Positions 43,000-53,623 of a stretch of DNA of 64,000 nt are shown here, piece by piece (position 1 is the stretch's first letter; the number at the start of each line of letters is the position of its first letter). The stretch comes from an uncultured bacterium (GTDB taxonomy: Bacteria; Verrucomicrobiota; Verrucomicrobiia; Verrucomicrobiales; DEV007). The translations under genes were made by a program, and so were the position numbers. The stretch is from assembly GCA_963977015.1 (NCBI GenBank), contig CAXBMO010000022.1:1-64000 (forward strand), in the 5' to 3' direction. The notes beneath the pieces were generated by a model. That model was given only the letters and a program-made list of their open reading frames with translations, was not told where the DNA came from and ran no database searches.

Positions 43000-44748
43000 C
43001 TACTTTCCTTCAACTGAGCGAACGTGTTCGAGAAATTTGTTCGCTTCCTCTTTCACCACGGGTAGCAACATGTACATCCCGATCATGTTCGGGACGACCA
43101 TGGCGAAGATCAACGCGTCGGAGAGGTTGATGACGTTGTTGAGTTGCGCGGAGGCGCCGACCACCACCAACAGACAGAAAACGACTTTGTAGATCAACAC
43201 GCAGACGTCGGGTGCTTTTTCGTTCCCCGTAAGTCGCGCCAGGTATCGCACGCCCTGCTCTCCGTAGTAGGACCAGGAAATCATGGTGGAAAACGCAAAC
43301 AACAGAACGGCAATCGACAGCAATCTGGGGAACCATTCAATCGCGCTGGCAAAAGCCATGGAGGTCACCGGAATTCCGGACCGACTCTCGATCTGATCGG
43401 CTCTCACCCAACCCGACACTTCGGTCTCCTCGTAATCAGCCGAAATGAGACCAATCACTTCTTTCCATTCCTCAGTTTCACCGCTTTCCACCTCCCGGGT
43501 TCGCGAACCTTTGGTGTGGACAAATTGTCCCGCTTCCAGGGTTTGGACGACTTCCGGGTAAGCGGGGTCAGAAACCATGGGAGCCGAGTCCGCGCTGATT
43601 TCACCGCTGACCTGCCAGGTGCCAACGATCACGATCACGAGAGCTGTCATCGTGCAAACCACGACAGTATCGGTGAAAGGCTCGAGCAGGGCGACGAACC
43701 CTTCACTCGCCGGTTTGTCCGTTTTGACTGCGGAGTGGGCAATCGGCGCCGAGCCCAATCCAGCTTCGTTCGAAAATGCGGCGCGTTTGATGCCTTGAAT
43801 CAGAATCCCAACGAAGCCGCCCGCAATCGCCTGAGAACTGAACGCCCCGGCAAAAATGGTGGCAAATGCCCCGCCGACCTTGTCCAGGTTCATCGCGATA
43901 ATGATGAACGCGGTAATCATGTATCCGATGCACATGATCGGAACGAGCAGGGACGTGACCCGGGCAATCCAGACGATGCCGCCGATGATGACCGAGCCAA
44001 CCAGAACGGCGATCACCAGTCCAAAAATGACCGGAGACAACCCGGGTGCCCAGCTGCTCTCGAATTGGCTGAAAGCCTGGTTCGCTTGAAACATGTTTCC
44101 CGCCCCAAACGCCCCACCGATGACGAAAACCGCGAAAATGGCCGCCAAAACAGCGCCAAGGCCACCCAATCCACGTTCCTTCAACCCATCCCGGAGATAA
44201 TACATGCCCCCTCCCCTCACCTTTCCGTTCGGATCAATCCGGCGATACTTCACGCCCAACGTGCATTCGGCAAACTTGGTCGTCATCCCGAAAAGCCCCA
44301 TCAAAATCATCCAAAAGGTCGCTCCCGGTCCACCCAAGCCAATTGCGACGGCAACACCTGCGATGTTCCCCAGGCCAACGGTCGCCGAAAGCGCCGCGCT
44401 CAACGCCTGAAAGTGGGTAATTTCGCCGGGCGCATCTTTGGGAGTGTATTTTCCCGTGGCGGTTTTGATGGCAATGCCAAAGCCACGGAAATTGATAAAC
44501 CCGAAGTAGATCGTCAGGAAAATGGCGGTTCCCCCCAGAATGATCAAGACGATGGGGAGACTCTGTCCGGCAATTGGAATCGAAAAGAAGACTATTCCAC
44601 CGACAAAATCGGCAATCGGCCCCAGCCCCTTGTCGATTCCCAAACTGATCGTTTCGAGGATCCCCGGCTCCTGGGCGAAACTCCGCGGAGACATGAGAAT
44701 CGCGAAAAGGGCGATAAGGAAGATCGTTGGGTGGCGTAGCGATTTCAT
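43000..44748 (-). CDS. agcS: Alanine/glycine:cation symporter (AGCS family) with a loop insertion
   Basis: ATVGLGNIAGVA, GGPGATFW, FSNEAGLGSAPIAH, FAFSTMISWSYYG. Confidence 0.95.
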   Translation of the reverse strand: MKSLRHPTIFLIALFAILMSPRSFAQEPGILETISLGIDKGLGPIADFVGGIVFFSIPIAGQSLPIVLIILGGTAIFLTIYFGFINFRGFGIAIKTATGKYTPKDAPGEITHFQALSAALSATVGLGNIAGVAVAIGLGGPGATFWMILMGLFGMTTKFAECTLGVKYRRIDPNGKVRGGGMYYLRDGLKERGLGGLGAVLAAIFAVFVIGGAFGAGNMFQANQAFSQFESSWAPGLSPVIFGLVIAVLVGSVIIGGIVWIARVTSLLVPIMCIGYMITAFIIIAMNLDKVGGAFATIFAGAFSSQAIAGGFVGILIQGIKRAAFSNEAGLGSAPIAHSAVKTDKPASEGFVALLEPFTDTVVVCTMTALVIVIVGTWQVSGEISADSAPMVSDPAYPEVVQTLEAGQFVHTKGSRTREVESGETEEWKEVIGLISADYEETEVSGWVRADQIESRSGIPVTSMAFASAIEWFPRLLSIAVLLFAFSTMISWSYYGEQGVRYLARLTGNEKAPDVCVLIYKVVFCLLVVVGASAQLNNVINLSDALIFAMVVPNMIGMYMLLPVVKEEANKFLEHVRSVEGK

Positions 44749-44769
44749 ATGGACCAAGAAAGTTCGCGA

Positions 44770-44798
44770 ATCCTAAGGACTCACTTCCACCCTGACAA
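44770..44798 (-). promoter_or_regulatory. Sigma70-type promoter for the symporter
   Basis: TTGTCA-N17-TAGGAT on the minus strand, 21 nt before ATG 44748. Confidence 0.5.
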
Positions 44799-44915
44799 CC
44801 AGAAAAAAGGGCTCTTTCCGGGATGGCATTGCCCTTCCAACCTGTGCCTCAATCTGGGCGGCAATTCAGGTCAACGGTGCTTGATTAGCGCTCTGTCATC
44901 CCGGACTGTGTCCGA

Positions 44916-45359
44916 ATGGAATTGAGTCAATTCACAGACTACTCGCTGCGCGTCCTGATTTACGTGGCGGTTGAGTCAGAGCAGCGATCGTCAATCAAGG
45001 AGATCGCTTCTGCGTATGACATTTCCCAGAATCATCTCGTCAAGGTCGTCCACCATTTGTCGAAGCAGGGTTTCCTCGATACATTCCGGGGACGCGGAGG
45101 AGGAATCGCCCTGGCTCGAGCCCCGGAGACCATCAGCGTCGGCGAGGTGGTGCGAAAGTCGGAGAAGCTGGACTTGGTGGAATGCTTTTCCGCCAAATCC
45201 CGGAACTGTTGTTGCCTTGCCGGCCATTGCGAGCTTCAAATCGCTCTGACAAGGGCTAAAAATGCGTTTCTCGCCGAACTCGACAAGGTTTCGCTCTCCG
45301 ATCTGACGACGAAAAGAGAGCAGCTCGGCAAGCTTCTGAGAATCGGAGCCACGCCCTGA
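44916..45359 (+). CDS. nsrR: Rrf2 family NO-sensing regulator NsrR
   Basis: FTDYSLRVL with Asp8, ISQNHLVKVV, RGRGGG, C-terminal Cys cluster ECF...CCC...HC. Confidence 0.85.
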   Translation: MELSQFTDYSLRVLIYVAVESEQRSSIKEIASAYDISQNHLVKVVHHLSKQGFLDTFRGRGGGIALARAPETISVGEVVRKSEKLDLVECFSAKSRNCCCLAGHCELQIALTRAKNAFLAELDKVSLSDLTTKREQLGKLLRIGATP

Positions 45360-45396
45360 TCCAAGGGGTCACCCAGGGAAGAAATGGTCAGAGGGG

Positions 45397-45428
45397 TTGA
45401 CAAAAGATGTACTAAAGATACAGCTTTT
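45397..45428 (+). promoter_or_regulatory. TTGACA promoter overlapped by an NsrR box
   Basis: TTGACA (45397-45402) followed by AAAGATGTAC-TAAAG-ATACAGCTTTT; core GATGTAC-N5-ATACAGC matches gATGyAT-N5-ATrCATc at 12/14. Confidence 0.75.
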
Positions 45429-45460
45429 GGTCACCTTATTCAAACTAACATAGCAATCCA

Positions 45461-45964
45461 ATGCGCCAACCATTCCCAAAACTCCTCGTCCTTGCTCTTT
45501 CCCTTCTTTTTTCGTCAGCCGTTGCCCAAGCCGAGGAGCCAGGCAAACAGGCCGAAAAAGACACCGCTAACCAATCAACTTCGGCGACGATTTATGAACG
45601 AATCGGCGGTACCGCCGCAATCGACGCAGCCGTCGATCGATTTTACGAGAAGATCCTGGCGGACGACCGGGTGAACCACTTTTTCGAGGATGTGAACATG
45701 AGCCGCCAGATTGCGAAGCAGAAAGCCTTTCTCGCCGCCGCATTCGGAGGACCGGTGCCTTATGAGGGCAAAGATTTACGCCAGGCCCACGCTACTCTCG
45801 ACCTGACCGACCAGGATTTCGACGCCATTGCCGAGCATCTCCACTCCACCCTTACGGAATTGAAAGTCGATGGAAAGCTGGTTTCAGAGGTGATGACGCT
45901 GCTCGAATCAACGCGGGCCGCCGTGCTGAACCGGCCCGAGACAACGCAGGTGTCCGGCGAGTAG
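45461..45964 (+). CDS. glbN: Group I truncated hemoglobin (HbN-like) with a Sec signal peptide
   Basis: IYERIGG, RFYEKILADDRVNHFF (TyrB10, PheCD1), QIAKQ, YEGKDLRQAH (HisF8); N-terminal signal ending AQA. Confidence 0.92.
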   Translation: MRQPFPKLLVLALSLLFSSAVAQAEEPGKQAEKDTANQSTSATIYERIGGTAAIDAAVDRFYEKILADDRVNHFFEDVNMSRQIAKQKAFLAAAFGGPVPYEGKDLRQAHATLDLTDQDFDAIAEHLHSTLTELKVDGKLVSEVMTLLESTRAAVLNRPETTQVSGE

Positions 45965-45982
45965 CTCCCAACGACTCCAACC

Positions 45983-46528
45983 ATGAAACCCCACTCCTTC
46001 TTTTCAACGGCCGCCCCCGCAGCGTTGCTCCTGATCCTGGTGAGCGTATTGGGCGCGCAGGAACCGAACCGCGCTACGCCGAAGGCTGGCGTAAGCGTGG
46101 ATGAAGCCCGCCGGCAGGCGCGGCTGCTGCACGAAGCACTGCACGGCGCTCTTCAGGTCATGCACCGCGATTTTTTCGATCCGGATGAACGGGATCGCAT
46201 TCCATCGGCCTCGCTCGAAGATGTTTTCGAAGTCATGGCCAAAGAGCGAGGCATCAAGCTGAGCTGGATGGGCGTCAATGCGACCATGGACGACGCGCAT
46301 GAACCAACCACCCCCTTCGAGAAATCGGCGGCGCAGAAGCTGGAAAAAGGGAGCCCGGAAGTCGAAACGGTCGACAATGGCTGGTTCCGTTTCGTCGGAG
46401 CCGTTCAACTTCACAACCAATGTTTAAAGTGTCATGTGCCTTATCGAACCAGTCTGGAAGACCGGGTGGCGGGGCTGAAAATCGAAATCCCGATCGCTGA
46501 CAGCCAAAGGAAAACCGAGCCGAACTAA
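45983..46528 (+). CDS. Exported c-type heme protein, DUF3365/Tll0287-like
   Basis: Signal peptide; HEPTTPFE; single CLKCH near the C-terminus followed by AGLKIEIP. Confidence 0.8.
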   Translation: MKPHSFFSTAAPAALLLILVSVLGAQEPNRATPKAGVSVDEARRQARLLHEALHGALQVMHRDFFDPDERDRIPSASLEDVFEVMAKERGIKLSWMGVNATMDDAHEPTTPFEKSAAQKLEKGSPEVETVDNGWFRFVGAVQLHNQCLKCHVPYRTSLEDRVAGLKIEIPIADSQRKTEPN

Positions 46529-46531
46529 ACG

Positions 46532-48340
46532 TTGCCAGAGATGAAACTTGAAGAAATCGAACAGCCTTCCCGGGTTGAGCAGATCAAGCATGACAGCAAC
46601 GGGCTTCGGCTTCCAAGTGCCACCGAACTGAGCTCCGACGCGCTGGCAGTGTCCGAAGAGGCCTGCCAATTGCTCAAATTCCACGGCACCTATCAGCAGG
46701 ACAATCGCGACACGCGAATCGCCCGGAAACGCAGCGGTCTGGACAAGGATTACAGCTTCATGGTGCGAAATCGCATTCCGGGCGGCAGGCTCACCGCGAA
46801 GCAATTCCTCGCCGAACTGGACCTGGCCGAGCAATTTGGGAACGGCACGATTCGCCTGACGACGCGCCAGAGCATCCAGATTCACGGCGTTCTGAAGAAC
46901 AACCTCCGTGACGTCATCCACGCCATCAACCGGATCGGTCTCTCGACCCAGTCGGCATGCGGCGATGTGAATCGAAACGTCATGTGCTGCCCGGCTCCGC
47001 TTCATCAGAATGCGGTCCGGAAGAACATGCTCGCCCTGGCGGATCAACTTGCCGATATTCTCCGTCCGAGGACGCAGGCCTACAACGATCTCTGGGTCAC
47101 CGATCCCGACACCGGGGAAAAGACCAACCACCTTGCATCGGCGATCGTGGAAGAACCGCTTTACGGCGCGCTCTACCTGCCACGCAAGTTCAAGGTCGGC
47201 ATTGCGCTTTGCGACGACAATTGCATCGACGTTTACGATCAGGATATCGGGCTCCTGGGGATCACCGATGGAGATTCGTTGCTCGGTTACAATATCCTGG
47301 CCGGGGGAAGTATGGGCACGACGCCGAGTGATCCTCGATGCTTTCCTGCCCTGGCAAAACGGCTGGCGTTTGTGACTCCAGAACAGGTTGCGGTGGTGGC
47401 CTCGGCCATCGTGTTGGTTCAACGTGACCATGGCGACCGGTCCGATCGGCGGCAGGCCCGGATGAAGTACTTGATTCACCGTTGGGGCTTGGAACGCTTT
47501 CGCGAAGCCGTCGTCGGGCGGCTCGAAGAAGCGGCCGCGACCATCGGGGCCGATCCCTCCCAGATTCCGGACGGTCTGGCCGAGCCCCACCCCGATGACG
47601 TCCGTTCGGCTCCCGATCATCTCGGCTGGCACGAACAAGGAGACGGCAATCGCTTTCTCGGCATTCCGATCGAGAACGGCCGGATCAAGGACGAGGACAA
47701 CATGAGGCTGAAGAAGGGGCTGCGAGAGATCTTCACCCGATTTGAGTTTGGTGCCCGGATCACCGCGCAGCAGAACCTCCTCATCGCCGACATCCCCCCA
47801 AGCCAATGCCGCGAGGTTCAGACGATCCTCAGCGATCACGGCATCAACACGACGGACGACCTGAAGCCATTGCGTCGTCGAGCCTTCGCCTGTCCTGCGT
47901 TGCCGACCTGCGGTCTGGCACTGACCGAAAGTGAGCGTGTCCTACCACGTTTGGTTGGTCAACTGCAAACGATCCTCGACGATTTGAAGATGGGCGATTT
48001 GGAACTCGACCTGCGAATGACGGGCTGCCCGAACGGCTGCGCCCGCCCCTACAACGCCGAGATCGGCCTGGTGGGAAGCGGTCACAATCCCAAGTCCGGA
48101 CAAGGAAAATACACCGTCTTCCTGGGAGGCAGCCCGTTGGGCAACCGGCTGAATTCGGTATTCCGCGAAAAGGTGCTTTTCGATGAAATCCCGCCACTTC
48201 TCCGGCCCATTCTCCAGCATTTTGCCGATCACCGAAACTCGGACGAAAGCTTTGGCGATTTCTGTCATCGCCTCGGCCTCGAACAGCTGCGAGATCTTTC
48301 GGACGGCCCACTCGAAGGGAATCATCGCTCCGTCTCATGA
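46532..48340 (+). CDS. cysI: Siroheme/4Fe-4S sulfite reductase hemoprotein (CysI/Sir type)
   Basis: LKFHGTYQQD, RLTTRQ, CGDVNRN, YLPRKFK, CPALPTC, GCPNGC; start TTG 46532 or ATG 46541. Confidence 0.92.
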   Translation: MPEMKLEEIEQPSRVEQIKHDSNGLRLPSATELSSDALAVSEEACQLLKFHGTYQQDNRDTRIARKRSGLDKDYSFMVRNRIPGGRLTAKQFLAELDLAEQFGNGTIRLTTRQSIQIHGVLKNNLRDVIHAINRIGLSTQSACGDVNRNVMCCPAPLHQNAVRKNMLALADQLADILRPRTQAYNDLWVTDPDTGEKTNHLASAIVEEPLYGALYLPRKFKVGIALCDDNCIDVYDQDIGLLGITDGDSLLGYNILAGGSMGTTPSDPRCFPALAKRLAFVTPEQVAVVASAIVLVQRDHGDRSDRRQARMKYLIHRWGLERFREAVVGRLEEAAATIGADPSQIPDGLAEPHPDDVRSAPDHLGWHEQGDGNRFLGIPIENGRIKDEDNMRLKKGLREIFTRFEFGARITAQQNLLIADIPPSQCREVQTILSDHGINTTDDLKPLRRRAFACPALPTCGLALTESERVLPRLVGQLQTILDDLKMGDLELDLRMTGCPNGCARPYNAEIGLVGSGHNPKSGQGKYTVFLGGSPLGNRLNSVFREKVLFDEIPPLLRPILQHFADHRNSDESFGDFCHRLGLEQLRDLSDGPLEGNHRSVS

Positions 48341-49560
48341 AATCAAGCGACGCCAATCCCGCTTCCGCTCAAGGCCTCCAGACCCGCTCCGTTCATGCTG
48401 GCGAGATTCCGGATCCCAACACTGGCGCGTCGTCGCCGAACCTGGTGATGTCCTCCACTTTCCTCGCCGATCCCGAGGCCTCGTTCTCGGCAGAGGGAAG
48501 CCACGGCGAGGACGACTTTTTCTACACACGCTGGGCCAACCCGACCGTCGCCCAGTTGGAAGCGAAGCTCGCAGCCCTGGAGGAAGCCGAAGCGGCCATG
48601 GCTTTCGCTTCCGGGATGGCTGCGGTGAACGGTCTGTTTTTCCATTGTCTTCGTCCCGGCGATCATCTCGTTCTGGGAGATGTGGTCTACGCCGCCGTTT
48701 CAGAGACCGCCGATTCTCTTCTCAAGGAGCTGGGAATCGCGGTGTCACGGGTCGACACTTCGGATCTCGACGCGGTTCGCGAGGCACTCCAAGACAACAC
48801 CCGTCTCGTTTACATCGAATCGCCCTGCAATCCGATCCTGCGACTCACCGACATTCGGGCAGTTGCCGAGCTGGTTCACGAAGCAGGGGCCCGCCTCGCG
48901 GTGGACTCCACCTTCGCCACGCCTGTCGCAACCCGGCCCCTGGCGTTCGGAGCTGACTTCGTGGTCCACTCGTTGACCAAATATCTCGGTGGTCACGGCG
49001 ACGCGGTGGGAGGCGCCGTGCTTGGCCCCGAGGCAGATATCGCGGAGATTCGCCGGAAAGCGGGCATTCGCATGGGCGGGATTATCAGCCCCTTCAATGC
49101 CTGGCTCATTCTGCGCGGCGTGGCGACATTGCCCCTGCGAATGCGCGCCCACGAAGCTGCGGCCCTCGAGGTGAGCCGGTTTCTGGAAAATCACCCGGTG
49201 GTGAGCCGGGTTGTCTATCCAGGACTGGAATCGCATCCCCAACACGAACTCGCCCGCAGCCAGATGGCGAATTGTTCCGGCATGCTGACCTTTCAAACAG
49301 ATCGCCACGCCGAGTTGCCCCGCCTGTTCGCGGAACGTCTTCGCGTGATCCACTACGCGGTATCGTTGGGCCATCACCGCTCTCTTCTGTTCTATATTCC
49401 TACGAACGAGATCCTCGATACCTCCTTCGATTTGACCGAGACACAGGAGGCCCGCTATCGTGAATTCGCGGGAGACGCCATTTTCCGCCTCTCGGCCGGA
49501 ATCGAAGATCCCGGCGACCTCTGCGCGGACCTGGACCAGGTTTTCGCCGCCCTCACCTGA
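48337..49560 (+). CDS. Cys/Met metabolism PLP enzyme (cystathionine gamma-synthase/lyase, sulfhydrylase family)
   Basis: YTRWANPT, FASGMAA, ESPCNP, VDSTFATP, HSLTKYLGGHGD (PLP Lys), AVSLG. Confidence 0.93.
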   Translation: MKSSDANPASAQGLQTRSVHAGEIPDPNTGASSPNLVMSSTFLADPEASFSAEGSHGEDDFFYTRWANPTVAQLEAKLAALEEAEAAMAFASGMAAVNGLFFHCLRPGDHLVLGDVVYAAVSETADSLLKELGIAVSRVDTSDLDAVREALQDNTRLVYIESPCNPILRLTDIRAVAELVHEAGARLAVDSTFATPVATRPLAFGADFVVHSLTKYLGGHGDAVGGAVLGPEADIAEIRRKAGIRMGGIISPFNAWLILRGVATLPLRMRAHEAAALEVSRFLENHPVVSRVVYPGLESHPQHELARSQMANCSGMLTFQTDRHAELPRLFAERLRVIHYAVSLGHHRSLLFYIPTNEILDTSFDLTETQEARYREFAGDAIFRLSAGIEDPGDLCADLDQVFAALT

Positions 49561-49583
49561 TCGACATTGCTCTCCGACTTCCC

Positions 49584-50252
49584 ATGAAACTCATTCTCCA
49601 TGAAATGGCCCACAGTCCGTTTTGCATCCCCGTGAAGCGGATTCTCCAGGCTTACTCCGTTCCCTTCGAAACGAACGCCATTCCGGCCTGGGACCGACGC
49701 CAATTGATCGCGCTGACCTCCGGCGCTTACTATCAGGTGCCGGTGCTCGAATCCGATGGTCAGATCGTGCACGAGACGGCTGAGGAGCCCGTCGCCGTGG
49801 CGCGGTATCTCAATGCCCAATTCTGCAACGGCGAGCTGTTTCCCGATTCGTGCGCCGGACTGCAGGAAATCGTCATCGAGCACATCGAGAATTCGCTGGA
49901 GGGAAAGGGATTCAAGCTGAGCGACCCCTATTTTGTGGACGGGATTGGGGATATTGGTGATCGCGTCATGGTGATTCGCCACAAGGAACGCAGCTTTGGG
50001 CCAGGTTGTGTCGAGAAATGGCGCGAGGAAACTCCGGCTTTGTTGCGGGAATTCGAGGCGTCCCTAAAACCGTTCGAAACCCGGCTCAATCATTCTCCGT
50101 TCCTGTTCGGAGACGCCCCGGTTTACGCCGACTACGCCCTGTTTGGCGTCCTCGGCAATTTCCAGTTCGGCGGCCATCACCAATTGAACGCCCACTTTGA
50201 AAACCTGGTCCGCTGGGAGAAGAGGCTCGCGAACCACACGGCCTCGAACTGA
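49584..50252 (+). CDS. Glutathione S-transferase family protein
   Basis: HSPFC, QVPVL, FLFGDAPVYADYALFG. Confidence 0.85.
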   Translation: MKLILHEMAHSPFCIPVKRILQAYSVPFETNAIPAWDRRQLIALTSGAYYQVPVLESDGQIVHETAEEPVAVARYLNAQFCNGELFPDSCAGLQEIVIEHIENSLEGKGFKLSDPYFVDGIGDIGDRVMVIRHKERSFGPGCVEKWREETPALLREFEASLKPFETRLNHSPFLFGDAPVYADYALFGVLGNFQFGGHHQLNAHFENLVRWEKRLANHTASN

Positions 50253-50253
50253 G

Positions 50254-50598
50254 GTGATCGTCAGGCAAGAAGGTGGCCGCTGGCCCAATCTCACGCCCCT
50301 GATTGGATCACAAGTCGTCAACGCGGACCTGGCTGGAGATTCCGCGACCTTGCGGTTGGTTTTTCGGCACCCAGACGGCGAATCTGAATCGGAAGTCCAG
50401 ATTCCGCCGCCCTGGAATTTCACCTCGTGCATTCTGGCTTGTGGTTCGGACGAGATCACCACCGGTGACGAGTCCGGCTGGAGGTCGGCGTCCCAACTAA
50501 TTGGGCTGGAGGACGCCACCTTCACCAAGATGCACCAGGACGAGGACCACTGTGATCTCGTCTTCGACTCCATCACGATCAGCATCGCGGCAACCTGA
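50254..50598 (+). CDS. Hypothetical protein
   Basis: GTG start 1 bp after the GST stop; fills the gap to the next gene; no recognisable motif. Confidence 0.5.
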   Translation: MIVRQEGGRWPNLTPLIGSQVVNADLAGDSATLRLVFRHPDGESESEVQIPPPWNFTSCILACGSDEITTGDESGWRSASQLIGLEDATFTKMHQDEDHCDLVFDSITISIAAT

Positions 50599-50654
50599 GC
50601 CGACTTTTCCTTTTTGCCATGCAAGCTCGGCTCCAACTTTCCCGTGTCTGGGAC

Positions 50655-51335
50655 ATGCGCCACATCTGTCTCGCCCTCTTCCTCACCTCCACTCTGGTCT
50701 CCGCATCCGAACCCAACACTCTGACCGAAGCGGAACGCGCCGAGGGATGGAAACTGCTTTTCGACGGCGAGAAGATCGAAGGCTGGCGTAGCTACGGCTC
50801 GGACATGTCGCCGAAGCAGGGCTGGGTTGTCGAAAACGGCACGCTTCACAAACAAGCCGACCTTCGCGGTGGCGACATCATGACGGTCAAAACCTACGAG
50901 AACTTTGAGTTCAGCTGGGAATGGAAGCTTCTCGAAAAGGGGAACAACGGCGTTAAATACTTCATCATCCCGGAGCGCAAAGCCACCATCGGTCACGAAT
51001 ATCAGATGATTGACGACACCAAAGTCAAAGATGCCTATTCCAGCACGGCCGCCTTTTATCTGGTGGCGAAGCCGAGTCCGGACAAGCCCACCAAACCGAT
51101 GGGCGAATGGAACCACTCGCGCATCGTGGTCAGGGGGAACCACGTGGAGCACTGGTTGAATGGCACAAAGGTGCTCGAATATGAGTGCGGAAGCCCGGCC
51201 ATCATGGAGCGCGTTCCGCTAACCAAGTTCAAGAAGACTCCCGGCTTCGGTGAAAAAGTTACCGGGCACATTCTCCTGACCGACCACAAAGACCCCTGCT
51301 GGTTTCGGAACCTCAAAATCAAGGAACTGCCGTAG
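50655..51335 (+). CDS. DUF1080 (3-keto-disaccharide hydrolase-like) protein, secreted
   Basis: NTLTEAERAEGWKLLFDG, GNNGVKY, HEYQMID, GEWNHSRI, GHILLTDH, FRNLKIKEL. Confidence 0.92.
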   Translation: MRHICLALFLTSTLVSASEPNTLTEAERAEGWKLLFDGEKIEGWRSYGSDMSPKQGWVVENGTLHKQADLRGGDIMTVKTYENFEFSWEWKLLEKGNNGVKYFIIPERKATIGHEYQMIDDTKVKDAYSSTAAFYLVAKPSPDKPTKPMGEWNHSRIVVRGNHVEHWLNGTKVLEYECGSPAIMERVPLTKFKKTPGFGEKVTGHILLTDHKDPCWFRNLKIKELP

Positions 51336-51427
51336 AAATCGAAAGACGGATTCCGTTTCTTCCCTCAAATCTGAGCTGGAACCCTTCCGAACCATCGGCA
51401 ACGGTGTCGTCTCACCAACCCCCAATC

Positions 51428-53623
51428 ATGCCTCTTCGTCACGTTTTTCTCTACTCCGCCCTTGTGTGTTCCCTCTCGACCTTGTCGGCGCAGCAACCGC
51501 CGAACATCGTCTTCTTTTTCACGGATGATCAAACCACAAGCACACTTGCCTGTTACGGAAATCCGATCGTCCAGACTCCGAACATTGATGATCTGGCAAA
51601 ACGCGGAGTTCGTTTCGAGAACGCCTTCGTCAGCCACTCCATCTGTTGGGTGAGCCGTACGACCATCTTGAGCGGGCTGGTGGGCCGTAGTTTTGGAACC
51701 GCTGACGAACCGGACAAAGCACGCCCGGATGCAGTCGAAACCCTCTACTCCGACATCCTGCGGGAGAAGGGTTATCGCACGGGTTACTTCGGCAAATGGC
51801 ACGCCAAAATGCCAAAGGAATTCAAGAAGGAGGATCATTTTGATGAGTTCGAGGCAATTGGCCGCAACCCCTTCTACAAAAAGCAGCCGGATGGAAGTTT
51901 GCGTCATGAAACCGAGGTGATCGTCGATCGCGGAATCGAGTTCGTGAAGAGCCAACCAAAGGGAAAACCTTTCGCCCTCAACCTGTGGTTCAACGCCTGC
52001 CATGCCGAAGATAGCGACCGGCGTCCCGGGATTGGTCACTTTCCATGGCCGCGCGCCGTGGACGGAATGTATGAGGACTACAAGATTTACCCTCCCAAGC
52101 TGAATGATCCCGCCATTCTGGATGCCCAACCGGATTTTCTGAAGACGTCGATCAATCGGGAACGCTATTTCTGGCGATGGAATACGGATGAAAAGTATCA
52201 GACCAACATGCGCGCCTACTTCCGCATGGTCAGCGGAATTGATGGTGCGATCGGACGCTTTCGCCAGGCGCTCGAGGAAGCGGGCCTAGCCGACAACACC
52301 ATCATCGTCTATTCCGCCGACAACGGTTATCACATGGGCAATCGTGGATTTGCCGGCAAATGGTCCCACTATGAGGAGTCGCTGCGCGTCCCGCTCATCA
52401 TCTGTGATCCGCGCGTTCCGAAGAACCAGCAGGGCAAGGTGACGGACGCTCTCGCGTTGAATGTCGATCTTCCTGCGACCTTCCTCGATTGGGCCGGCGC
52501 GGATATTCCGGAACGCTATCAAGGGCATAGTCTCCAACCCATCGTGAACGCCGAAAAACCCGCCGACTGGCGCTCGGAAACCTTTCACGAGCACTTCGCG
52601 GTTCGAAACCGGATTCCGGCATTCGAGGGAATCCGCAACGAGCGCTTCAAGTATGTGAGATACTTCGATCACGGCGATCACGAATTTCTCCACGATCTCA
52701 AGACTGACCCCGATGAATTGGTGAACCTTGCCGACAGCCCGGAGTATGCCCCGATGTTGAAGGAGATGCGGGAGCGAACTGACCAGAAGGTTGCCGAGTA
52801 TGGCGGGCCGCTCAGTCCGCCAAAGGCCAAATTCACAGCGTCCACGCCACCCCACCCGAACGCCTCCGCCGCCGTTACCCAAAAACCTGGGAATGACGAT
52901 TTCGTGAGGCTTTTCGACGGAAAATCGCTGCGTGGTTGGACGGGAGATCCTCAATACTGGTCGGTCAAGGAAGGCGCGATCACCGGAGTGACGGATGGCT
53001 CGCTCAACATGAATCGCTTTCTCACCTGGAAGGGTTCGACCATTCGCAGCTTCGATCTTCACGTGAAGGTCAAAGTCTCGGCTGGCGGCAACAGTGGCAT
53101 TCAATACCGCGGAAAATCAGCGCCCGAAATCGGGCTCGATATCGTCACCGGATATCAGTGCGACATCGTCGCCAATAACCCGAACTACAACGGGATGCTT
53201 TATGAGGAGCGCGGTCGTCGCATTCTCTCGCATACCGGCGAGAAGGTGATCATCGATCCATCCGGCCAACCTTGGGTTGTCGGTCAGCTTCCCTCCAAAG
53301 AGTTCGCGGCTGGCGAGTGGCACGATTACCGCGTTCTCGTTCGCGGAAACCACCATCAACACTGGATCGACGGCCATCCCACCGCCGATCTGATTGATCT
53401 CGATGAGAAAGGCCGCGCGCTCGAAGGCGTCCTCGCCGTCCAGGTTCACGTTGGTCCGGCCATGCAGATTCAATTCAAGGATTTCAAAATCAAACATCTG
53501 CCTGACGAACTTCCCCTGCGGACCGCGGATGACAGCCCAATTCCCGTCGGCGCCTATGGAGTTCGCCCCCAGGGCAAATTGCCGAAAGACTGGAAGCCTC
53601 CGGTTTACGGGGAACAGAAATAG
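51428..53623 (+). CDS. Sulfatase fused to a C-terminal DUF1080 domain
   Basis: PNIVFFFTDDQ, CWVSR, GKWH, ADNG; C-terminal LFDGKSLRGW, GNSGIQYR, GYQCDI, GEWHDY, FKDFKIK. Confidence 0.92.
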   Translation: MPLRHVFLYSALVCSLSTLSAQQPPNIVFFFTDDQTTSTLACYGNPIVQTPNIDDLAKRGVRFENAFVSHSICWVSRTTILSGLVGRSFGTADEPDKARPDAVETLYSDILREKGYRTGYFGKWHAKMPKEFKKEDHFDEFEAIGRNPFYKKQPDGSLRHETEVIVDRGIEFVKSQPKGKPFALNLWFNACHAEDSDRRPGIGHFPWPRAVDGMYEDYKIYPPKLNDPAILDAQPDFLKTSINRERYFWRWNTDEKYQTNMRAYFRMVSGIDGAIGRFRQALEEAGLADNTIIVYSADNGYHMGNRGFAGKWSHYEESLRVPLIICDPRVPKNQQGKVTDALALNVDLPATFLDWAGADIPERYQGHSLQPIVNAEKPADWRSETFHEHFAVRNRIPAFEGIRNERFKYVRYFDHGDHEFLHDLKTDPDELVNLADSPEYAPMLKEMRERTDQKVAEYGGPLSPPKAKFTASTPPHPNASAAVTQKPGNDDFVRLFDGKSLRGWTGDPQYWSVKEGAITGVTDGSLNMNRFLTWKGSTIRSFDLHVKVKVSAGGNSGIQYRGKSAPEIGLDIVTGYQCDIVANNPNYNGMLYEERGRRILSHTGEKVIIDPSGQPWVVGQLPSKEFAAGEWHDYRVLVRGNHHQHWIDGHPTADLIDLDEKGRALEGVLAVQVHVGPAMQIQFKDFKIKHLPDELPLRTADDSPIPVGAYGVRPQGKLPKDWKPPVYGEQK

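Follow-up and report, generated by a model that had tools for sequence, protein, structure and literature searches.

What is a regulator of the NsrR type doing at the head of a row of genes for a globin, a c-type haem protein, a sulfite reductase (SiR), a pyridoxal-phosphate (PLP) enzyme of cysteine and methionine metabolism, a glutathione S-transferase (GST)-like protein and a small hypothetical protein, hyp? The question is raised by positions ~44812-50610 of the window, by which we mean the whole 64 kb contig stretch that was analysed, part of the 6.9 Mb genome (G000) of an uncultured marine bacterium of the Verrucomicrobiota. All seven genes lie on the forward strand. We think it probable that they represent an NsrR-type Fe-S repressor and, controlled from its operator, a single operon of six genes, and that this operon joins units which in sister genera are separate targets of NsrR boxes to a sulfite reductase added in this genome only. 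A preliminary description of the locus had reported nsrR and six tightly packed co-oriented genes. The same open reading frames (ORFs) with the same gaps were recovered, and the families to which they had been assigned were confirmed by Pfam and NCBIfam, hyp matching nothing.

The evidence that carries this answer begins with the operator. Between the regulator gene and the globin gene lies a palindrome that matches 12 of the 14 positions of the published NsrR motif, gATGyAT-(N5)-ATrCATc (Rodionov et al. 2005, PMC1274295). The same palindrome is found between the regulator gene and a globin or nnrS gene in five sister genomes, which with the window makes six. In one of these (G017) the site, TTGACAAAAGATGTAAAACAAATACATCTTT, shares with the window the layout of -35 hexamer and box; in another (G027) the site, AAAGATGCATTTCCAATACATCTTT, matches the published motif at 14/14 positions. 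When a matrix is trained on the five sites from the other genomes, with the window site excluded, the window operator scores 25.7 bits and is the top match of the 6.9 Mb genome. Three matches in total reach 20 bits or more. Since the two besides the window operator sit inside long ORFs, the genome has only one strong intergenic NsrR box, and it is the one before the globin gene. The stretch upstream of nsrR itself (44812-44915) contains no NsrR box, the best box-like score there being 12/25.

The surroundings of the regulator in other genomes point the same way. Homologues at E 1e-10 or better are present in 21 of the 40 relatives that we compared, and the three congeners have none at that level. 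A trHbN gene (a truncated haemoglobin, trHb) adjoins the regulator orthologue at four of 18 Rrf2 loci (G017, G005, G010 and G008), with a fifth case in G027 (L024), and nnrS lies beside the regulator orthologue in G010 and near it in G008. The orthologues that are next to trHbN and nnrS are 44-58% identical to the window regulator. In the C-terminal half of the regulator there is a Cys cluster, CFSAKSRNCCCLAGHC, that could provide the three Fe-S ligands expected of an NsrR; the orthologues retain Cys in this segment, and the number and spacing of these residues vary. Operator conservation, the fit to the consensus and the trHbN and nnrS neighbours thus support the proposal that the regulator behaves as NsrR, and so does the position of the only strong intergenic box. 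A search for an Hmp-type globin found none in the window genome, and the control genomes did respond to it. The corresponding search of the window genome for the NnrS family also gave no match, but here the control genomes gave none either.

If NsrR controls this operon, similar boxes might be expected before homologous genes elsewhere. We searched up to 250 bp upstream of each anchor gene with the matrix that excludes the window. Four of the eight other copies of the PLP gene are preceded by a box of at least 20 bits, located 5-36 bp before the start (G461 28.8; G460 24.8; G467 20.4; G454 21.1). Weaker boxes occur at the same place before the PLP gene of G462 (14.7 bits) and, in G008, before that locus's own Rrf2 gene (15.6 bits). 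For the c-type haem protein, which belongs to the DUF3365 or stand-alone sCache_haem family, boxes of at least 19 bits were found at six of 15 loci (G010, G005, G020, G017, G021 and G478). Over 44 family loci outside the training set (534 kb), all 11 matches of at least 19 bits lie upstream of anchor genes and none lies elsewhere; 160 control loci, namely the best 80 genome and the best 80 metagenome loci of SiR (1.78 Mb), gave 3 matches at that level. Genomes that bear the PLP-GST-hyp module encode an NsrR orthologue in all five cases checked (55-57% identity), on another contig. At the DUF3365 loci of two congeners (G001 and G002; L014 and L017) there is no box upstream, and the congeners also have no nsrR homologue at E 1e-10 or better. 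This comparison of sequences gives the family a predicted NsrR regulon made up of exported trHbN, nnrS, stand-alone sCache_haem and PLP-GST-hyp module genes. In the window, units of this predicted regulon are brought together in a single operon, to which a sulfite reductase is added. The link to nitric oxide (NO) that had been suggested for globin, cytochrome, PLP enzyme and GST is therefore supported, as each of them recurs behind NsrR-like boxes in sister genera.

The six genes following the operator are separated by 18, 3, -4, 23 and 1 bp, as calculated from the ORF coordinates. The haem protein gene is 3 bp from the SiR gene, and the SiR and PLP genes overlap by 4 bp. In 44600-51500, a region that includes the operon interior, there are 2 promoter-like sites, compared with 1.7 expected from shuffled sequence, and 7 terminator-like sites, compared with 7.5; neither is in excess. 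Because of the narrow gap, the overlap and internal promoter- and terminator-like sites that are not above chance, we infer that the six genes would be read as a single transcript. The features are listed in Table 1.

Table 1. Features of the nsrR locus, in window coordinates
Feature	Position	Strand	Basis
Left islet edge and stretch upstream of nsrR	44812-44915	+	homology to G003 flank ends near 44810
Rrf2 regulator, nsrR	44916-45359	+	147 aa; Pfam Rrf2 PF02082 2e-35, residues 3-132
TTGACA, -35-like hexamer abutting operator	45397-45402	+	sequence; same TTGACA-box layout in G017
NsrR-type palindromic operator, AAAGATGTACTAAAGATACAGCTTT	45403-45427	.	12/14 consensus match; 25.7 bits
Globin, trHbN (predicted exported)	45461-45964	+	167 aa; Pfam Bac_globin 1.6e-24
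Stand-alone sCache_haem (DUF3365/Tll0287-like) CxxCH c-type haem protein	45983-46528	+	181 aa; PF11845, 32.5 bits vs cut-off 24.1
Second sirohaem sulfite reductase (SiR)	46532-48340	+	602 aa; Pfam NIR_SIR and NIR_SIR_ferr
Cys/Met-metabolism gamma-family PLP enzyme	48337-49560	+	407 aa; Pfam Cys_Met_Meta_PP PF01053 4e-114
GST-like protein	49584-50252	+	222 aa; Pfam GST_N_3 and GST_C_2
Small ORF, hyp	50254-50598	+	114 aa; GTG start, alternative TTG at 50197; no Pfam match

Several observations weigh against such a reading, and it is convenient to gather them here. The best NCBIfam model for the regulator is indeed NsrR (NF008240), but at 134 bits the protein stays below the cut-off of 182, and RirA scores nearly as well (124 bits, with a cut-off of 193). 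The preliminary description had an NsrR-type palindrome covering a TTGACA promoter. A TTGACA does abut the palindrome, and the fit of the box to the motif stands, but a sigma-70 promoter scan does not call the site because its -10 element (TACAGC) is weak. No box precedes the PLP-GST loci of G529 and G532, and only 2 of 21 loci with GST alone have one. A stand-alone sCache_haem protein has been reported to bind NO weakly, with no partner assigned to it in the account given (bioRxiv 10.64898/2026.02.01.703092). The PLP enzyme reaches no equivalog cut-off among the best-scoring 25 of its 70 NCBIfam matches (cystathionine gamma-synthase, 354.7 against 513; methionine gamma-lyase, 352.8 against 666), and as it is accepted by no equivalog, any direction given to its chemistry would be tentative. 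Finally, SiR is linked to other operon genes at none of the loci compared (0/40 relatives, 0/80 genome loci and 0/80 metagenome loci), so its place in an NO response rests on the one arrangement seen here.

Some of these observations invite other explanations. It could be that the regulator is not specific for NO but is an Rrf2 protein sensing iron, cluster status or oxidative stress, similar to RirA or IscR, and that the operon serves haem, iron or redox homeostasis. With RirA and NsrR scores of 124 and 134 bits, both short of their cut-offs, the models alone would permit this. The spacing of the cysteines, which we take to differ from that in E. coli NsrR, would permit it too, and one DUF3365 orthologue is found beside a Fur-family gene and katG. 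An iron or redox regulator would nevertheless have to live with an operator that fits the NsrR consensus at 12/14 positions here and at up to 14/14 in G027, with trHbN and nnrS adjoining its orthologues, with nnrS and hmp adjoining DUF3365 orthologues, and with a module fused to a Ctb-like globin in G008. We consider this explanation highly improbable.

Another potential explanation concerns the extent of the operon. NsrR might control the globin and haem protein genes only, while SiR, PLP, GST and hyp form a sulfur-assimilation or methionine operon with an internal promoter of its own under the control of sulfur status. The tight packing around the SiR gene, with 3 bp on one side and an overlap of 4 bp on the other, speaks against such a division, as do promoter- and terminator-like sites that are no more frequent than chance in the scanned region; yet little is known of the types of promoter used in this phylum, and a scan could therefore miss an internal one. 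The SiR gene is linked to NO genes nowhere else, and the PLP genes of G467 and G462 stand in a sulfur context, downstream of a cysteine-desulfurase-like gene. On the other hand, PLP-GST-hyp modules in four other genomes have NsrR-like boxes of their own, and the window genome is already equipped with cysH/cysD-type genes, two further full-length PLP paralogues and a housekeeping SiR that has a regulator resembling CymR. On balance, a division into two units seems to us distinctly unlikely, and we continue to treat the six genes as one operon under NsrR.

What, then, is the sulfite reductase? It passes the NCBIfam assimilatory model NF010029 with 686 bits (cut-off 457), contains the ALPTCG, GCPNGC and PRKFK motifs and keeps 96 of 99 near-invariant SiR columns, like undoubted SiRs; judged by these residues, it looks functional. 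As regards the type of electron donor, the protein scores 568 with the ferredoxin-type model TIGR02042 (cut-off 731.5) and 503 with the CysI model TIGR02041 (cut-off 756), and there is no cysJ in the cluster. It is one of three NIR_SIR genes in the genome, the others being on contigs C7 and C19, and it is only 42% identical to the housekeeping C7 copy. Identity to the full-length SiRs of the 40 relatives is at most 47% (50% for a fragment of 149 residues in G030), and nothing in 185,579 species genomes or in a metagenome collection is more than 53% identical. A quick tree places the window SiR as sister to 50 SiRs of Planctomycetota (SH-aLRT 98) on a long branch of 0.64, the median being 0.15, and groups the C7 copy with Verrucomicrobiota.

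The C7 copy behaves quite differently. Its orthologues, at 58-88% identity, are found in 24 of the 40 relatives, and eleven others have a single SiR at 42-45%; the window SiR has no counterpart above 53%. Like the window, C7 has an Rrf2 regulator next to a sulfite reductase gene, which here is divergent from it (L001:757-3094, corresponding to G000:C7:96186-98523). Unlike the window regulator, this one lacks the Cys cluster and has CymR as its best specific model (83.8 bits, below the cut-off). The genome thus has two distinct sulfite reductases, each paired with an Rrf2 regulator of another kind. The third NIR_SIR gene, a NirA-type copy, belongs to a nitrate-assimilation cluster on C19 (G000:C19:30000-41100), which contains ABC transporter genes, a CysJ-like flavoprotein, the NirA-type sirohaem reductase and a molybdopterin reductase.

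With a long and unique branch and an unusual place in an NsrR operon, the sirohaem enzyme might have been turned to nitrogen oxides, reducing nitrite or hydroxylamine derived from NO and so contributing to nitrogen detoxification. There are analogies for this: CysI-type enzymes reduce nitrite, and nasDEF is under NsrR control in Bacillus. We find it very unlikely all the same. The protein passes the assimilatory sulfite reductase model and has kept the PRKFK motif together with 96/99 of the near-invariant SiR columns, its gene overlaps that of a sulfur-amino-acid PLP enzyme, and the genome has a separate NirA in the C19 cluster. The preliminary description had made sulfite reduction part of its candidate system and proposed a search for conserved nsrR-glbN-DUF3365-cysI synteny, naming unlinked globin/DUF3365 and SiR blocks as an outcome that would refute it. 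At all the other loci compared these blocks are unlinked, and a place for sulfite reduction in a conserved system is therefore not supported.

The PLP gene next to it recurs together with the genes downstream of it. Its nearest entries in the Protein Data Bank (PDB) are methionine gamma-lyases (311 bits), and the PLP lysine motif SLTKY is present. Gamma-lyases have Y-G-C at the active-site segment. The Tyr-Gly-Cys of methionine gamma-lyase is absent here, the window protein and all eight orthologues (8/8) having the segment Y-A-A-V-S-E. A close orthologue exists in one of the 40 relatives, G008 (74%), where the order is an NsrR-like three-Cys Rrf2 (a second paralogue), PLP, GST, hyp. In the same genome (L212:11131-11844) hyp is a domain of a fusion protein whose other part is a group III trHb related to Campylobacter Ctb (E 6e-13). 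Of 133 family genomes, 31 have a GST orthologue, and 30 of these loci were examined. At nine of the 30 a PLP gene (74-81% identity) is directly upstream of the GST gene, with hyp downstream in 8/9, and PLP orthologues at this level of identity are always followed by a GST-like gene. A trHb-like gene is divergent from the PLP gene in G454 and a DUF3365 gene is divergent from the GST gene in G478. Across the phylum, GST homologues were found in 3 of 400 genomes, with no operon gene nearby. Twice, and independently, the slot upstream of the PLP gene has been taken by an enzyme that would supply sulfur, SiR in the window and the desulfurase-like gene in G467 and G462, and this is no more than a hint that the PLP enzyme uses reduced sulfur.

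The other two members of the module can be characterized mainly by their conserved residues and folds. In the GST-like protein the HSP[FY]C motif is invariant, and H10, S11, P12, C14 and C142 do not vary among 27 sequences. Its structural model (pLDDT 94.3) is closest in fold to LigE beta-etherase, fungal GSTFuA and E. coli Grx2 (TM 0.74-0.81). As modelled, the protein has the thioredoxin-like N-terminal and helical C-terminal domains of the GST superfamily, to which we assign it. The product of hyp has invariant PW..SC, GL..A and D....SI..S motifs (9 sequences) and is one of few relatives, since only 31 clusters match it among 1.84 billion representatives. A search with the single sequence returned only the query itself, Foldseek gave no match at E 0.001 or better, a structure search with VIA-align 2 against the pdb_via_wide library reached no more than the usual background (Z 7.7 at best, to NFACT-N domains), and scores in the ESM Atlas did not exceed 0.82.

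We now turn to the first two genes of the operon. The globin matches cyanoglobin GlbN (6e-30) and M. tuberculosis HbN (9e-23) among PDB entries, and HbO only at 1e-6. It is also close to the solved trHbs of Tetrahymena and Chlamydomonas, which places it in group I. Residues F61, Y62, Q83, Q87 and H110 are invariant in six sequences, among them those that we take to be the B10 Tyr, the E7/E11 Gln and the F8 His. As a measure of likeness to a signal peptide we used the best 12-residue Kyte-Doolittle mean at the N-terminus, which is 2.43 for the globin and 2.86 for the DUF3365 protein, compared with at most 1.3 for the five cytoplasmic proteins. Both N-termini are therefore signal-peptide-like, and export of the two proteins is predicted. 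Four of five globin orthologues score at least 2.4; the G008 ORF as called scores 0.57, although a Met inside it precedes a run of hydrophobic residues.

Two further observations on the globin can be mentioned. In three sister genomes (L043:5511-6212; L033:5998-6570; L024:5418-6107) there is an extra Cys-rich domain between the signal peptide of trHbN and the globin, a YHS domain by Pfam in G008 and with a CPxxG motif, giving an exported architecture of metal site plus globin. In one contig of sequencing run X2, and not in the others of that run, the globin gene carries a 3-base in-frame insertion (2 + 1 bases) at window 45807-45810, which suggests a population variant.

The DUF3365 protein has its CxxCH at residue 147. 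CLKCH is invariant in ten sequences and so is H61, and a comparison by sequence with solved structures returned nothing at E 1 or better. Homologues were found in 13 of 40 relatives, at 15 loci, none of which has a SiR, PLP or GST gene. The regulator and globin genes are within 2 kb in G027, and in G010 a hyp homologue is directly downstream. Neighbours elsewhere are nnrS (G037), hmp with a Crp-family gene (G027) and katG with a Fur-family gene (G009). In G033 (L025:8006-11563) the DUF3365 gene is preceded by two others, one for an SCO1/SenC-FGE fusion and one of the multicopper-oxidase/cytochrome c type, a context that, by our reading of its gene content, resembles NirK/NirV-like denitrification; this locus has no NsrR-like box. 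Stand-alone sCache_haem proteins are described as redox-like and as binding NO weakly, one representative having a potential of +123 mV, and the published account of the class has no informative gene association to offer (bioRxiv 10.64898/2026.02.01.703092). The gene context that we describe could fill this gap, though as a lead only. A complex prediction for mature trHbN, the sCache_haem protein and two haems scored 0.01, against a mark of 0.32.

How did such a combination of genes arise? In 19 kb of the window that we compared with three congeners, one of these, G003, is informative. It has the amino-acid carrier gene of the left flank and the DUF1080 and sulfatase genes of the right flank on one contig, about 150 bp apart, with protein identities of 89% and 78%. 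Because the flanks are directly adjacent in G003, that genome lacks the ~5.9 kb which the window has between them, nsrR and hyp included, and the region ~44812-50610 is an accessory islet. Its composition gives no signal of foreign origin, GC content at third codon positions (GC3) being 0.65-0.72 in the cluster genes and 0.66-0.74 in the flanks. The only flanking repeat is a direct repeat of 22 nt (86%) at 44719-44740 and 50771-50792, which are 6052 bp apart, just outside the islet and within the flanking genes. It may be due to chance or be a trace of an insertion event.

Contigs from three sequencing runs (X1, X2 and X4), which may derive from the source sample, are identical to the window and bridge the globin/haem protein, haem protein/SiR and SiR/PLP junctions. 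A fourth run, X3, represents a strain about 98% identical; its contigs reach all 30 bins and span the junction between PLP and GST. Such bridging contigs mean that the gene order is not an assembly artefact of a single record. The combination of all seven genes is found in the window genome and in the ~98% identical X3 strain only. Judged from these sequences, the cluster is a mosaic within an accessory islet and not a conserved system. The set of genes with which the preliminary description began thus exists as an operon of this genome but holds only in part as a conserved regulon, the SiR arm being unique to the genome.

Several proposed steps can be combined to describe how the operon might work. 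NO would damage the cluster of NsrR, and the repressor would then leave the box that abuts the -35 hexamer, as the comparison of operators suggests. In the periplasm, the globin could oxidise NO with the haem protein as its electron donor. In the cytoplasm, sulfide from SiR could pass to the PLP enzyme and the GST-like protein, acting as a thiol transferase, so that low-molecular-weight thiols are rebuilt or protected; this is the weakest step. If all of it is correct, this verrucomicrobial family would have a nitrosative-stress pathway of two compartments under NsrR that has not been described before, with a periplasmic trHbN/sCache_haem NO dioxygenase and a cytoplasmic module of PLP enzyme, Cys-containing GST and hyp that makes or repairs thiols, fed in the window genome by a dedicated NO-inducible SiR. 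In this complete form the pathway is possible but doubtful.

We know of other systems that resemble parts of this one. In Legionella pneumophila, which has no hmp, NsrR is predicted to have a single target, glbN-lpg2536, an operon of a globin gene and one for a putative reductase (Rodionov et al. 2005, PMC1274295). As in the window, that target consists of a group I truncated globin and a candidate electron donor, in a host without hmp. Unlike in Legionella, the globin and the candidate donor of the window are both predicted to be exported, the donor is a c-type sCache_haem protein rather than a ferredoxin reductase, and four sulfur and thiol genes share the operon. The classical NsrR regulons of proteobacteria and Bacillus (hmp, hcp-hcr, ytfE/dnrN, nnrS, norB, nirK) also have an Rrf2 repressor acting on a gATGyAT-N5-ATrCATc palindrome that overlaps the promoter, and in the sister genomes, too, the targets include nnrS and globin genes. 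They differ in that the window regulator falls below the NsrR cut-off and that DUF3365, the PLP enzyme, the GST-like protein, hyp and SiR would be candidate new members.

Both Gardner (2012, PMC3820574) and Rodionov et al. (2005, PMC1274295) have already described a link between NsrR and trHbN. Our literature searches found no paper that connects NsrR with DUF3365, a Cys/Met PLP enzyme, GST, hyp or sulfite reductase, though Table S4 of Rodionov et al. (2005) could list further members. The multihaem cytochrome-trHb fusions of cable bacteria (PMC11976967), as far as described there, likewise pair a predicted periplasmic trHb with c-type haem and are a partial precedent for the haem protein as a reductant of the globin. 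Those fusions are single proteins proposed to reduce oxygen, while in the window two separate genes stand under an NO sensor. With the stand-alone sCache_haem class (10.64898/2026.02.01.703092) the window protein shares a single exported domain and a CXXCH haem; the class as published comes without genetic association, whereas the window gene is in an NsrR operon and NsrR-like boxes are found at 6/15 orthologues. Taken together, the window holds a known kind of system, an NsrR regulon, with an unusual and partly new membership.

Neither sulfur-amino-acid enzymes nor GST-fold proteins nor a sulfite reductase are, to our knowledge, known targets of NsrR. The operator evidence provides testable targets for sulfur and thiol genes under NsrR and for the context of the stand-alone sCache_haem proteins, and the first two operon genes are a candidate periplasmic NO-oxidising pair in a phylum whose response to NO is unstudied. 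Should the two-compartment pathway prove true, a physiological role would be assigned to the stand-alone sCache_haem class for the first time. If NO does induce the sulfur arm, NO defence would be joined to thiol supply in one operon.

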